64,000 bases of DNA from NCBI GenBank assembly GCA_046290225.1, contig JBKAGE010000035.1:192001-256000 (forward strand). Direction: 5' to 3'. Below the pieces are notes generated by a model. That model saw only the letters and a list, made by a program, of their open reading frames with translations, made no database searches and was not told the DNA's origin. This stretch comes from Bradymonadia bacterium. Lineage in GTDB: Bacteria; Myxococcota_A; Bradymonadia; UBA7976; UBA1532. Of this stretch, positions 36,946 to 50,413 are shown piece by piece; the stretch's first letter is position 1; each line of letters opens with the position of its first letter. The position numbers and the translations under genes are program-made.

Positions 36946-37017
36946 GGGCCATTAGCTCAATGGCAGAGCAACGGACTCTTAATCCGCAGGTTGTAGGTTC
37001 GACTCCTACATGGCCCA
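36946..37017 (+). tRNA. tRNA-Lys(CTT) copy 1
   Basis: Cloverleaf, anticodon loop CTCTTAA, no CCA. Confidence 0.94.
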
Positions 37018-37131
37018 CTACCCTTTCTTCTGGCCTTTTTCTCGCCTCACCCATGTGTGTTCTGTCTTTGGCAGGCGCACATCTTACCTCGGTCGATCCC
37101 CCGTCCACCGTCCTCGACGTTCATCTTGTGT

Positions 37132-37206
37132 GGGCCATTAGCTCAATGGCAGAGCAACGGACTCTTAATCCGCAGGTTGTAGGTTCGACTCCTACATGGC
37201 CCACCA
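37132..37206 (+). tRNA. tRNA-Lys(CTT) copy 2
   Basis: Identical to copy 1, CCA encoded. Confidence 0.95.
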
Positions 37207-47315: not shown

Positions 47316-47759
47316 ATGCATCGCCGCACCAAAATCGCACTCGTCGTCACCGCCATGCTCTCCCTCACCGCCGTCGCCGGCGCTCGAGGGTGGTTCGGAC
47401 ATCACAAGATGGATCCCGAACGCATCGCCAGCTTCGTCGATGACCGCTTCGAAGACGTCATGGATCGACTCGACGCCACTGACGATCAGCAGGCACGTCT
47501 CAAGCCCCTCGTGGACAACCTGGTCGATGAAGGTCTGGGCCTCATGAAGACCCGAGGGGAGCTCAAGACCACCCTGTTGGCAGAGTGGAACGCCGAGAAG
47601 CCCAACGCAGAGGCAGTACACGCCGCCATCGACGCCCGCATCGACGAGTTCCGGGCCATGGCCCACAAGGCCGCCGACTCAGCCATCGAGGCCCACGAGA
47701 TCTTCACACCAGAGCAGCGCAAGCAGATCGCCGACCGAGTCTCACACGCCCACCGATGA
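47316..47759 (+). CDS. Spy/CpxP-family periplasmic protein
   Basis: AAGGAG SD, signal peptide, LDATDDQ and IFTPEQR (LTxxQ-like) motifs. Confidence 0.78.
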   Translation: MHRRTKIALVVTAMLSLTAVAGARGWFGHHKMDPERIASFVDDRFEDVMDRLDATDDQQARLKPLVDNLVDEGLGLMKTRGELKTTLLAEWNAEKPNAEAVHAAIDARIDEFRAMAHKAADSAIEAHEIFTPEQRKQIADRVSHAHR

Positions 47760-47912
47760 GACACACGCGCCATAATGCGCAAACAACGAGCTGAAAAGCC
47801 AACCCCCTCACCTACCCCTCTCATCCCCACCAAAGACCTCTCGCCCCCATGACCACCTTCACCTTCGTTTTGATTGAGTTTTTCTCGCTCACAACACGCT
47901 TCGCCCAAAACC

Positions 47913-47928
47913 TGGCACGGCGCCTGCT
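47913..47928 (+). promoter_or_regulatory. Sigma-54 promoter upstream of the Y-RNA/rsr locus
   Basis: TGGCAC-GGCGC-CTGCT with GG/GC at -24/-12 spacing. Predicted TSS near 47939, followed by hairpin 47941-47968. Confidence 0.75.
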
Positions 47929-47973
47929 CTAGTCTCAGAGCGAGCGTGACGCTTCGGCAAGACGCTCGAACAT

Positions 47974-48115
47974 GTTGGGATAGCTCAGTCAGGTAGAGCA
48001 GCTGAAGAAGGTTTTTCCCTCCAACTCGGCTTCTCCGGCATCCGCCGGCAGTGAGGGTCTGGAGTTACTTCGTTGGTAAATCGGCGTGCCGCAGGTTCGA
48101 ATCCTGCTCCCAGCA
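47974..48115 (+). ncRNA. Y-RNA-like RNA 1: non-permuted tRNA scaffold with putative Ro-binding module in the anticodon loop
   Basis: Acceptor GTTGGGA/TCCCAGC+A, D arm GCTC/GAGC, anticodon stem GCTGA/TCGGC, T arm GCAGG-TTCGAAT-CCTGC. The 75-nt loop carries GCAGTGAG (48048) and TACTTC (48066). Confidence 0.8.
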
Positions 48116-48117
48116 CT

Positions 48118-48198
48118 GTGAGGCAGTGAGCTTCAGGGATACTTCATTTGACTGTTAATCAAACTCGAAACACACCCCCTGTTGCGTTTTCTCCTCGC
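48118..48198 (+). ncRNA. Y-RNA-like RNA 2: compact Y RNA with an anticodon-like hairpin
   Basis: Terminal stem GTGAGG-C-AG/CT-CCTCGC, GCAGTGAG (48123), TACTTC (48140), internal TTTGA-CTGTTAA-TCAAA. Confidence 0.75.
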
Positions 48199-48226
48199 TC
48201 TCTTTCGGCTCCCTTGGGAGCCATGT

Positions 48227-48361
48227 GCGTGGATAGTTCAGCGGTCCAGAACATTTGAACACCCATCGTCGGCGTTCTCAGGGGTTCACCCCCCTGCAGT
48301 GAGACAACGGGTTACTTCGGCTTCCACCCGAAAGACGCGGGTTCGAATCCCGCTCCACGCT
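48227..48361 (+). ncRNA. Y-RNA-like RNA 3: complete tRNA-Gly(TCC) cloverleaf with a 62-nt putative Ro-binding insert
   Basis: GCGTGGA/TCCACGC+T73, D arm GTTC/GAAC, insert 48254-48315, anticodon arm TTCGG-CTTCCAC-CCGAA, variable region AGAC, T arm GCGGG-TTCGAAT-CCCGC. Confidence 0.82.
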
Positions 48362-48437
48362 CTAGTTCTAAATCCTGAGAGTAACAGGCCTTCGTTCAGA
48401 GCAAGGGCAGGGCCACGGGTCCACATCGGTATCAACT

Positions 48438-48469
48438 CGTGCCCGCGCCCGTGCCCGTGCCCGTGCCCG
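48438..48469. repeat. (CGTGCC)n hexamer tract
   Basis: CGTGCCCGCGCCCGTGCCCGTGCCCGTGCCCG; partly complementary to the upstream GGGCAGGGCCACGGG. Confidence 0.7.
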
Positions 48470-48483
48470 AAAACTCTCTTTTA

Positions 48484-48772
48484 GAGGTCCTAACAAAACA
48501 GCTCCCGTCGCCAGAGCCGCAGCGCTGTTGAGTGCAGCCAGACGAAAGTACCCGGTGGGCAACTCTTCGCTCCGTCGGCTTCGCCTTTGTCGACTTCGAG
48601 TTGTCTGGCAAAGCCAGATACCATCGTCTGTCTGCACTCAGCACTTCGCGAGACATCCAAAACCGTCCGCGACGATGCTTTAAAGGCGCTAGCCGGCATC
48701 GCCTGCGGGTGTTCTGGATGTCTCACTCGTACCTCACGCCCCTGGCTCGGTCCGCTGTTCTGTTAGGACCTC
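48484..48772. mobile_element. 289-bp MITE with 19-bp TIRs and TTA target duplication
   Basis: GAGGTCCTAACAAAACAGC ... GCTGTTCTGTTAGGACCTC (18/19 inverted match), TTA on both flanks, internal hairpins, no transposase. Confidence 0.8.
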
Positions 48773-48802
48773 TTAATTCCCCCACTCAATGGGAGGTGAA
48801 CC

Positions 48803-50413
48803 ATGGGTTTCTTGAACCGCCGTAAGAAGAACAAGCGCCGCATGCAGGCCAAGAGCCACCTCAACTGGATGGCTGGCACCTCGTATGACATGAGCGATGC
48901 CATCAAGCGGCTGCGAATCGCAGCCTCTTCCTGCTTCTTCGGGGAGCCCATGTATTACCACCGCGACAGCGGTGACGATCGCAAGGTCAAGGTACAGCAC
49001 GTCTATCGTGCGCGGCTCTCCGATCGCGACGTCTCCCGACTGCGGGAGACCCTCGACGGCCTCGATCCGCAGTCCTGGCGCGGCCTCTCGCCTGCCGAGT
49101 TGATGGAGAAGGCCATCGACGAGGCCCTCGACGCCGATGCCGAGGCCACCTTGCAGGAGGCCGTGCGCCTGCGCAGCGAGGAGAACATCCGGACCACCCC
49201 CCAGGTGATCCTGGTGCGGGCGGCCCATCACCCGTCTGTGCGGGGGACCGGTCTGGTGCGTCGCTATGGTGCCCAGATCATCCAGCGCGCCGACGAGCCT
49301 GCGGTCGGCCTCGGGTATCAGCTCGCCAGGTACGGTAAGCCGGTGCCCAACGCCTTGAAGAAGACCTGGCGCGACGCCCTGCAGCGTTTCGACGCCTACC
49401 AGCTCGCCAAGTACCGTTTGGAGAGCCGCGAGGTGAAGACCGTCGACGTCGTCAACCTCGTGCACCCGAAGGGGGAGGCGTTGAGCAAGCTGGCCAAGGG
49501 CGAGCTGAAGATCACCGGCCAGACCTGGGAGTCCATCGTGTCAGCCCAGGGCTCTGATCAGGCGGGCTGGGAGGCCGCGTTGCCCCGTATGGGTCACATG
49601 GCGCTCCTGCGCAACCTGCGCAACCTCAGCCAGGCTGGGGTGCCCGAGGCAATGTTCCGGGATCAGCTGGTCCGCGGCGCCGAGAAGGGCCGGCAGTTGC
49701 CGTTCCGGTACTACAGCGCGTATCGGGCGCTGCAGAGCCAGAAGGTCTCTGGTGATCTGCTCGACGCAGTGGAGCGGTGCTTGATGTTGTCCTTGGGCAA
49801 CCTGCCCCACTTCAACGGTCGAGTGATGTCGCTGTGCGACAACTCCGGCTCTGCCCGGGGCACCACCACCTCGTCCATGGGCACCATGCAGGTGGCCACC
49901 ATCGGCAACCTCACCGGCGTGCTCACCGGCATGCGGGCCGACGACGGCCACCTGGGCGTCTTCGGCGATCGGCTGACCACCATGCCGATCCGCAAGCAGA
50001 GCTCGGTCTTCGACCAGCTCAAGGCCGCCGAGGCCATGGGCAACCGGGTGGGTGGGGGCACCGAGAACGGCATCTGGCTGTTCTGGGACGAGGCGATCCG
50101 CAAGAGCGAGCACTGGGATCACGTCTTCGTGTATTCCGACATGCAGGCGGGCCACGGTGGTCTGTATGGCCGCAACGCGTCGGACTACAAGGATTACTTG
50201 TGGTCCAATGGGCACAACATCGACGTGCCCAAGCTCGTGAAGGCCTACCGTGAGCGGGTGAACCCGAACGTGATGGTGTATCTGGTCCAGGTCGCAGGCT
50301 ACCAGGACACGATCATGCCGGAGTTCTACGACAAGACCTTCATCCTCGGTGGCTGGGGTGATGGTTTGCTGCGGTTCGCCGGCGAGATGTCGGGGCTGTG
50401 GCAGAAGGCGTGA
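48803..50413 (+). CDS. rsr: Ro60/TROVE-domain RNA-binding protein with C-terminal vWA domain
   Basis: TROVE hallmarks FFGEPMYY, FDAYQLAKY, TWESIVS, MALLRNLRNL and QLPFRYYSAY. MIDAS-like CDNSGS and YSDMQ. GGAGG SD. Confidence 0.9.
   Translation: MGFLNRRKKNKRRMQAKSHLNWMAGTSYDMSDAIKRLRIAASSCFFGEPMYYHRDSGDDRKVKVQHVYRARLSDRDVSRLRETLDGLDPQSWRGLSPAELMEKAIDEALDADAEATLQEAVRLRSEENIRTTPQVILVRAAHHPSVRGTGLVRRYGAQIIQRADEPAVGLGYQLARYGKPVPNALKKTWRDALQRFDAYQLAKYRLESREVKTVDVVNLVHPKGEALSKLAKGELKITGQTWESIVSAQGSDQAGWEAALPRMGHMALLRNLRNLSQAGVPEAMFRDQLVRGAEKGRQLPFRYYSAYRALQSQKVSGDLLDAVERCLMLSLGNLPHFNGRVMSLCDNSGSARGTTTSSMGTMQVATIGNLTGVLTGMRADDGHLGVFGDRLTTMPIRKQSSVFDQLKAAEAMGNRVGGGTENGIWLFWDEAIRKSEHWDHVFVYSDMQAGHGGLYGRNASDYKDYLWSNGHNIDVPKLVKAYRERVNPNVMVYLVQVAGYQDTIMPEFYDKTFILGGWGDGLLRFAGEMSGLWQKA

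Follow-up and report, generated by a model that had tools for sequence, protein, structure and literature searches.

What is the function of a gene that reads as a glycine tRNA, is interrupted by 62 nt between its D arm and its anticodon arm, and is followed 441 nt downstream, on the same strand, by the start of a gene for a TROVE-domain protein? The question is raised by element E2, a 135-nt tRNA-shaped gene on the plus strand of a 64,000-nt stretch of contig JBKAGE010000035.1 of a Bradymonadia bacterium (assembly GCA_046290225.1, positions 192,001 to 256,000), referred to here as the window. E2 is interpreted, with a probability of about 0.8, as a Y-RNA-type partner RNA of the adjoining Ro60-like TROVE protein, in which a complete, non-permuted tRNA body carries an extra arm at the D/anticodon hinge and is not used for decoding. 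The role of the tRNA-like half of bacterial Y RNAs has been a question since 2014. In YrlA and Yrn1 neither an anticodon loop nor free acceptor ends are present, and the range of possible tests has been limited for this reason; RNAs of the E2 type keep both.

The sequence of E2 agrees base for base with that given in a first-pass annotation of the window, where the gene was described as an intact tRNA-Gly(TCC) containing a Y-RNA module. Seven tRNAs are found in the window by ARAGORN in its default mode, none of them at E2, and the Rfam tRNA model matches only the 3' part of the element at 25.6 bits, below the gathering score of 29. E2 is not recognised as a contiguous 73- to 76-nt cloverleaf by either method at these settings. 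An Rfam search at E values up to 10 over positions 47600-48800 gave tRNA matches and chance-level hits only. When nucleotides 48254-48315 are deleted, the remaining 73-nt cloverleaf is identified by ARAGORN as tRNA-Gly(tcc) over positions 1-73, in agreement with the earlier description, and in the intron mode the whole 135 nt is identified as tRNA-Gly(tcc) with a 62-nt insert. The CCA end is not encoded in four of the seven ordinary tRNA genes of the window, as had also been stated.

The minimum-energy fold of the 135-nt RNA is a cloverleaf with a fifth arm. Its energy of -49.9 kcal/mol compares with -40.4 +/- 3.7 kcal/mol for shuffled sequences (z -2.57), and 4 of 200 shuffles are as good. 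GAAC occurs twice in E2 (48249-48252 and 48257-48260), and in the minimum-energy fold the 5' strand of the D stem is paired with the second copy (GUUCAG with UUGAAC) as an alternative to the canonical D arm. The nucleotides of the tRNA elbow are present (U8, A14, G18, G19, A21, G15 with C48, G53-C61 and the UUCGAAU T loop), and the D and T helices (helices 2 and 5) are supported. The identity elements of bacterial tRNA-Gly, namely G1-C72, C2-G71, G3-C70, U73, C35 and C36, are all found in the sequence as previously reported, with U73 corresponding to the T at 48361.

In the insert, GUUCUC and GCAGUGAG face each other across an internal loop. The bases C 48277, U 48278 and C 48279 are paired with G 48299, A 48298 and G 48296, respectively, and C 48297 forms a bulge. 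These two motifs (the second with its bulged C) and GGUUACUUC contain the best-conserved letters of the family outside the tRNA body, and GGUUACUUC reaches into the anticodon-like stem on its 5' strand. The overlap of TACTTC (48313-48318) with that strand, which was pointed out in the first-pass annotation, is confirmed. The motif GGGUUACUUC is common to the tRNA-shaped RNAs, to the hairpin-type RNAs and to a second TROVE locus in the host genome, where it takes the form UUACUUCG.

The family to which E2 belongs was defined from the DNA upstream of related TROVE genes. Among 8000 candidates scored, 3848 relatives of the TROVE protein were obtained at E values up to 0.001, and the comparison covered 75 genome loci and 80 metagenome loci. 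An alignment (A2) and a covariance model (R1) were built from 39 tRNA-shaped examples. The consensus of A2 contains the acceptor, D and T helices of a tRNA and two helices, P1 and P2, inside the insert. Paired bases occupy 96.3% of the alignment cells, in comparison with 38-49% when the partner strand is slid. Both-sided, compensatory changes are found in 22 of the 27 pairs, a value reached by 0 of 500 shuffles; these include 5 of the 6 pairs of P1 and 4 of the 6 pairs of P2.

At 71.7 bits or more, R1 detects 54 elements, each longer than 100 nt. They come from the window and from 50 of the 75 genome loci, and the 80 metagenome loci yield a further 8 elements. The matches include cultured strains of Sorangium, Nannocystis and Paraliomyxa, strains related to Polyangium, members of the Chloroflexota and one archaeal metagenome-assembled genome. 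E2 is matched at 87.8 bits, with E values of 6.4e-16 over the whole 8.58-Mb genome and 3.8e-17 in the locus set; since E2 is among the 39 sequences from which R1 was built, this score is partly obtained by construction. All of the family motifs (GUUCUC, GCAGUGAG and UUACUUC) are present. In the genome of the host, the only matches of R1 other than tRNAs are E2, an element E1 located upstream of it, and the three elements that precede the second TROVE gene. ARAGORN in intron mode was also applied to the family and returned a full-length tRNA with one insert for 59 of 69 elements; the place of the insert is inconsistent and the isotype calls were not usable.

The linkage of the insert to TROVE genes was determined with the motif AGUG[AC]-N8-12-U[AC]CU[UC]C at the 135 loci for which 300 nt or more of upstream sequence was available. 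The motif is found on the same strand within 700 nt upstream of the TROVE gene at 102 of these loci, and no match was found on the opposite strand or in an equal-length coding control. The insert is also shared with the hairpin-type RNAs, and its earlier description as a Y-RNA module placed between the D and anticodon arms is borne out. Used as a single query against solved structures, the window TROVE protein matches only the phage Ro60 homolog, at an E value of 1.3e-13. A profile of the subfamily matches the Ro60 homolog of a Thermus phage (9kop/9l5y) at 3e-24 and human RO60 (9nen) at 4e-4. The two best relatives from the protein collection share 80% and 75% identity with the window protein. 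The scans of genome and metagenome loci gave no TROVE relative above 68% identity and no near copy of E2, and in 60 relatives of the host the window protein is absent beyond weak matches.

Three connectivities of one set of helices were found among the related loci. The first is the tRNA-ended form of E2. In the second, the hairpin form, UUC is paired with GAA and a loop is closed. The third is a permuted form, found in Deinococcus xinjiangensis (L051:2250-2378), in which the RNA ends lie in the distal hairpin of the insert and the acceptor stem is closed by a GCCA loop. Its order is 5' module strand, anticodon-like arm with a CUUGUAA loop, T arm, acceptor stem, D arm and 3' module strand, and it is followed by a hairpin-type RNA. 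The five-armed form is thereby tied to the layout of classical Y RNAs. A simple route from a tRNA to a Y RNA can be offered, in which the hinge first gains an arm and the ends are relocated afterwards; it stands beside the published model of a dimeric tRNA.

Bacterial Y RNAs are described as tRNA-mimicking RNAs encoded near rsr on the same strand (PMC4201824), and E2 likewise lies on the same strand as a TROVE gene and within ~4 kb of it. YrlA (RF02553; Salmonella and M. smegmatis; Chen et al. 2014, Wang et al. 2018) resembles E2 as a same-strand neighbour of a Ro60/TROVE gene, in its tRNA-like D and T arms with elbow nucleotides, in the protein-binding helix joined to the tRNA-like body, and in its occurrence in arrays with a second Y RNA of the hairpin type. 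YrlA is circularly permuted in the order T arm, closed acceptor stem-loop and D arm, has its ends in the Ro60 stem and is without an anticodon loop (10.1101/312249). In contrast, E2 has the true order of a tRNA with open acceptor ends; it also has an anticodon-like arm, and its putative protein arm branches from the hinge as a fifth arm. E2 is best read as a non-permuted variant of the YrlA/Yrn kind of tRNA-shaped Y RNA and is not a member of YrlA itself. No description of a tRNA-ended, five-armed Y RNA was found in the literature searched, including the available parts of PMC4201824 and 10.1101/312249.

The Y RNAs Yrn1 and Yrn2 of D. radiodurans (Rsr, PNPase) resemble E2 in having a long stem with the Rsr site beside a tRNA-like domain with a T arm, and several Y RNAs are encoded per locus in this organism and co-transcribed with a tRNA (PMC4201824). 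Unlike in E2, the Rsr stem of Yrn1 is formed from the RNA ends and the acceptor stem is not free. The 5' strand of Yrn1 seems to hold GGUUACUU above the protected Rsr site, which is taken as a lead only because the figure text in the available source (Supplementary Figures S2 and S4) is garbled. The window TROVE protein is not a close ortholog of Rsr; relatives at an E value of 1e-30 or better were found in 2 of the 51 Deinococcus genomes searched. Its closest solved relative is the Ro60 protein of the Thermus phage phiLo (PMC12135203). Two Y-like RNAs, Yrl1 and Yrl2, chosen by their CGAA motif, lie directly upstream of the phiLo Ro60 gene and bind the protein (PMC12135203). They are not described as tRNA-ended in the available text and are likened to E2 by description only. 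The Sorangium TROVE gene listed in Supplementary Table S1 of PMC4201824, sce5600, is different from the Sorangium relative of the window gene.

An ordinary bacterial tRNA-Gly(UCC) shares with E2 the acceptor identity set, the UCC triplet, a variable stretch of 4 nt, the T arm and the elbow nucleotides. E2 differs in the 62 extra nucleotides between positions 26 and 27, the missing call at threshold, its location in a TROVE operon, and a best match to the tRNAs of its own genome of 57 out of 73 positions. The genome (8.58 Mb; rated 99.4% complete and 2.2% contaminated) contains 96 tRNA genes according to ARAGORN, with at least two copies for most anticodons. The tRNA-Gly genes comprise two with TCC, two with GCC and one with CCC, and the ordinary tRNA-Gly(TCC) genes, the existence of which the first-pass annotation had left to be checked, are located on contigs C78 and C79. 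Because of these two genes, E2 is not needed for decoding.

It is very improbable that E2 is a decaying tRNA-Gly gene with an insertion, or the split reserve tRNA, activated by removal of the insert, that was among the earlier suggestions. Without the insert E2 is a good tRNA-Gly, and RtcB ligases are encoded in the genome. Against this stands the insert itself, which is a conserved and covarying module throughout the family and is located at the 26/27 hinge, not in the anticodon loop. Introns of bacterial tRNAs sit in the anticodon loop, and a group I intron would need more than 62 nt. A search for the archaeal-type tRNA-splicing endonuclease (PF01974) gave 0 matches in the genome, and the control search was positive in 4 archaea. 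The two intact tRNA-Gly(TCC) genes also make a reserve copy needless.

The glycine features of E2 had been attributed either to selection for recognition by glycyl-tRNA synthetase (GlyRS) or to a recent origin from a tRNA. An anticodon-like arm, with at least four of five pairs and a 7-nt loop at the canonical place, is present in 42 of 58 distinct elements, in comparison with 16% in shuffled sequences, and the same criterion applied to other loop sizes gives 2 to 23 of the 58. The 42 elements with a good arm have U33 in 37 cases and a purine at position 37 in 38 cases, and they carry 19 different triplets. A single acceptor (GCC/GGC with A73) bears seven of these triplets (ACA, ATC, ATT, CCA, CCT, TCT and GTT). 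The triplet varies freely under an unchanged acceptor, and selection for GlyRS recognition is therefore not supported. The independent variation of acceptor and triplet is the outcome that had been named in advance as evidence against such selection, and near-identical RNAs differ mainly in the loop. The glycine features are most likely the mark of an origin from a tRNA-Gly body rather than a maintained GlyRS identity.

A glycylated mimic, in which GlyRS would recognise the acceptor set together with C35/C36 and the charged E2 would be tethered to the TROVE protein, is accordingly judged unlikely. The complete set of glycine identity elements and the nucleotides of the L-shape favour it. Among the tRNAs of the same genome, the insert-free E2 has the most matching positions with tRNA-Gly(TCC), at 57/73, a margin of one base over the next tRNA, which is a tRNA-Thr (56/73). 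The only other UCC loop in the family is found at locus L022, so that both UCC-bearing members have U73; the U73 of L022 is nevertheless also common to L008 and L071, which bear UUU (alike in loop and variable region). The two UCC-bearing loci are not placed together in a quick protein tree, which does not resolve their sister relation. A large Sorangium clade has Arg-type triplets but a U at position 20 in the numbering used here for the 7-nt D loop; arginyl-tRNA synthetase requires A20. The 62-nt arm at the hinge may also hinder the binding of a synthetase or of EF-Tu. The possible aminoacylation of YrlA from M. smegmatis, which is cut by RNase P and CCA-tailed, was raised by Chen et al. 2014 (PMC4201824).

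The second TROVE locus of the host (C34:374570-377766; L163, L172 and L181) bears on both questions. Ahead of its TROVE gene lie real genes for tRNA-Pro(TGG) and tRNA-Pro(CGG) and three tRNA-shaped RNAs, and the insert motif is found there once more, for the fourth time, at 375498. After removal of their inserts, the three RNAs are identified by ARAGORN as tRNA-Pro(tgg) in two cases and tRNA-Asp(gtc) in one. The RNA designated C34_2 is identical to the tRNA-Pro(CGG) of the same array at 62 of 74 positions, its top five matches among the tRNAs of the genome are all tRNA-Pro, and it bears the full Pro identity set (C1-G72, A73 and UGG), which is a further point in favour of charging. RNAs of this design are here evident paralogs of tRNA-Pro, next to real tRNA-Pro genes, and the RNAs of the locus thus derive from identifiable tRNAs. 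An origin of E2-type RNAs from real tRNAs is thus plausible, and this half of the earlier alternative is retained while selection by GlyRS is not. Orthologous second loci are present in 4 of the 60 relatives; they keep the Pro-type acceptor (C1-G72, A73) with differing loops that include Asp-type and Arg-type versions, which speaks against a kept synthetase identity.

Of the leads from the comparison, the fast change of the anticodon-like loop is the most interesting. Rates were compared in 15 independent close pairs of elements, each at most 10% different outside the loop. Differences are found at 24 of 105 loop positions, at 43 of 1863 RNA positions outside the loop and, in the adjacent gene, at 441 of 4560 four-fold sites. 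The loop changes ~10 times as fast as the remainder of the RNA and ~2.4 times as fast as the four-fold sites. The elements L183:1329-1434 and L184:2635-2739 differ at 4 of the 7 positions of the loop and at 1 of the remaining 99, and their two loops are identical to the loops of the real tRNA-Arg(ACG) and tRNA-Asp of the host genome. L037:2189-2321 and L042:2184-2316 are a further example of a pair with fast loop change, and in some pairs the loop looks replaced as a block. Identity to a real tRNA loop of the host genome is observed for 8 of 30 distinct loops. In these 30 loops G36 is accompanied by G37 in 10 of 10 cases, in comparison with 2 of 20 otherwise, as in real tRNAs; many of them end in GGA, perhaps in another register, and this observation was not used as support.

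A block-wise swap to real anticodon-loop sequences is the pattern expected of a bait or decoy, whereas relaxed constraint could be enough for much of the fast loop change. A bait or decoy, in which a Ro60-bound tRNA body with a lifelike anticodon stem-loop would absorb or sense anticodon-loop nucleases or other enzymes directed at particular tRNAs, or pass them on to repair or decay, is possible rather than probable, and it would refine the assignment of E2 as a Y-RNA-type partner more than oppose it. The retention of the tRNA form of the loop, its high rate of change and its matches to real tRNA loops are consistent with this function, as is the presence of Gly-, Pro-, Pro- and Asp-type versions in one genome. 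The decoy for anticodon nucleases suggested in the first-pass annotation gains some support in this indirect way from the hypervariable loop. On the other hand, an unconstrained loop would change fast too, and in a GC-rich genome the neutral rate is higher than four-fold sites suggest. Triplets that no bacterial tRNA uses (ACA, ATC and ATT) occur in several loops, and the locus has no linked nuclease gene.

In Salmonella, the rsr-Y RNA-rtcBA operon is under RtcR control and was tied to anticodon-loop cleavage by Hughes et al. 2020, who propose that YrlA's tRNA-like domain may competitively inhibit an anticodon-loop nuclease (PMC7790460). None of the literature matches listed for Y RNA as a decoy mentions an anticodon nuclease. 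The host genome has one RtcR-type sigma-54 activator and three RtcB genes (C38:252418-252951; C51:14920-16182; C8:30797-31963; C54:19043-19756), which add to the case for a bait, although they are not located on the contig of either TROVE locus. A wider and doubtful proposal is that TROVE particles with end-matured tRNA bodies of recognisable isotype, a protein arm grafted at the hinge, and loops exchanged among real tRNA loops would constitute a programmable tRNA bait, with the five-armed form as the missing step between a tRNA and a permuted Y RNA.

The following pathway is proposed for E2 as a partner RNA of the TROVE protein. A sigma-54-dependent transcript starting near 47930 would contain the TROVE gene preceded by E1, a hairpin-type RNA, E2 and a structured leader. 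E2 would be excised by RNase P and by the enzymes that act on 3' tRNA ends, as suggested by its 7-bp acceptor stem and full D/T elbow, and CCA would then be added, in the manner of the M. smegmatis YrlA, for which cleavage by RNase P and CCA addition were shown (PMC4201824). The extra arm is predicted to dock to the TROVE ring via the conserved internal loop formed by GUUCUC opposite GCAGUGAG with its bulged C. The tRNA-shaped part, including the anticodon-like stem-loop, would engage a tRNA-recognising partner. This partner could be an exonuclease, by analogy with the Ro60-Y RNA-PNPase particle of Deinococcus, or else an enzyme for the cleavage or repair of anticodon loops. E2-type RNAs keep free acceptor ends and an anticodon-like loop, come in three connectivities and also occur in cultured Sorangium and Polyangium strains, so that their maturation, their charging, the conserved element that holds the Ro60 ring and the targeting of the loop become directly testable.

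Several observations weigh against the assignment of E2 as a Y-RNA-type partner. The YrlA-defining motif GNCGAAN0-1G does not occur in E2, where CGAA is found twice (48329-48332 and in the T loop), in neither case after G-N. The Rfam YrlA model gives no match on E2, the nearest being 14.7 bits at 47937-48025 relative to a gathering score of 69. With motif and model match both missing, the proposed protein-binding element is a guess. The neighbouring protein is, as judged from its sequence, a Ro60-type TROVE protein but a distant relative of Ro60, with human RO60 reached by the profile only. Expression, processing and binding of E2 are likewise predictions from sequence. E2 is an outlier of its family at 87.8 bits, in comparison with 105-130 bits for most members, and together with E1 (85.9 bits) it is a divergent member. 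It is the sole carrier of a GUUC/GAAC D stem among 62 elements and one of 2 among 39 family members with G3-C70, and it pairs the full glycine identity set with a perfect 5-bp anticodon stem. An interaction of E2 alone with GlyRS therefore remains conceivable. The features of the locus and of the second TROVE locus are collected in Table 1.

Table 1. Positions of E2, its parts and the neighbouring features in the window, and of the corresponding features on contig C34
Feature	Position	Strand	Description
E2	48227..48361	+	five-armed tRNA-shaped RNA; R1 87.8 bits; ARAGORN tRNA-Gly(tcc) once the insert is deleted
E2 acceptor stem	48227-48233 with 48354-48360	+	7 bp
E2 D arm	48236-48252	+	GUUC / 9-nt loop / GAAC; hinge A at 48253
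E2 hinge insert (module)	48254..48315	+	62 nt; P1 48261-48264 with 48309-48312; distal hairpin P2 48277-48299; from the fold
GUUCUC	48274..48279	+	one side of the internal loop; invariant or almost so in alignment A2
GCAGUGAG	48296..48303	+	opposite side of the internal loop, with bulged C; conserved; putative TROVE docking site
GGGUUACUUC	48309..48318	+	conserved; final three bases start the anticodon-like stem
E2 anticodon-like arm	48316..48332	+	TTCGG / CTTCCAC / CCGAA; 5 Watson-Crick pairs, 7-nt loop, triplet UCC at 48323-48325
E2 variable stretch	48333-48336	+	4 nt
E2 T arm	48337..48353	+	GCGGG / UUCGAAU / CCCGC; helix 5, 100% of cells paired in the family
Sigma-54-type promoter box	47913..47928	+	TGGCAC-N5-CTGCT; putative function
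E1	47974..48115	+	first tRNA-shaped RNA; acceptor, D and T arms intact; module inside the anticodon-type stem
Hairpin-type RNA	~48118..48198	+	shared motifs in another order: CAGUGAG ... AUACUUC - loop - CGAAACAC ... GUUUUCUC
Structured leader	48362..48802	+	between E2 and the TROVE gene
TROVE-domain gene	48803..50413	+	536 aa; Ro60/Rsr-like; Pfam TROVE 52.8 bits, cut-off 23
Sigma-54-type box, second locus	C34:374570-374585		same box type as in the window
Three tRNA-shaped RNAs, second locus	C34:374632-375086		R1 matches; insert of 34-42 nt at the same hinge, ending in UUACUUCG
Second TROVE gene	C34:375958-377766		602 aa; TROVE + DUF7788; behind a sigma-54-type box

E2 is the third of three RNA genes with common motifs that are located within 390 nt. 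The first, E1, is matched by the Rfam tRNA model at 41.8 bits with a 75-nt insert. It is without a clean 7-nt anticodon loop, and only 3 of 5 pairs are formed in the canonical register of the anticodon arm. The second is the hairpin-type RNA, for which a fold of -22.9 kcal/mol was obtained (z -2.13; 5 of 200 shuffles as good). The hairpin type comes after a tRNA-shaped RNA in relatives too, for example at L013:2366-2470, where the z value is -5.19.

The leader folds at -196.6 kcal/mol, in comparison with -145.2 +/- 5.9 kcal/mol for shuffled sequences (z -8.68; 0 of 100 shuffles as good). It contains three long inverted repeats (48480-48519/48737-48776, 48526-48555/48614-48643 and 48650-48678/48696-48724). 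The leader may serve as an additional partner RNA or have a regulatory role.

The sigma-54-type box is matched once in the window, where 0.12 matches are expected, and at least one match is found in 11 of 100 shuffles. A strict match occurs at 23 of 142 related loci. The Ro60/Y RNA operon of Salmonella is transcribed by the sigma-54 polymerase with the activator RtcR, and the RtcR-type protein of the host is a candidate regulator for the boxes ahead of both RNA arrays. No RtcR-sized gene was found upstream at L014 or L006.

In the ARAGORN analysis of the host genome, one tRNA-Pyl(cta) call and one tRNA-SeC were also returned, and CCA is encoded in some tRNA genes and not in others. Elsewhere in the window, two tRNA-Lys(CTT) genes (36946-37018 and 37132-37206) are identical over the Rfam-aligned sequence of 72 nt each and lie 186 nt apart, with CCA encoded after the second only.

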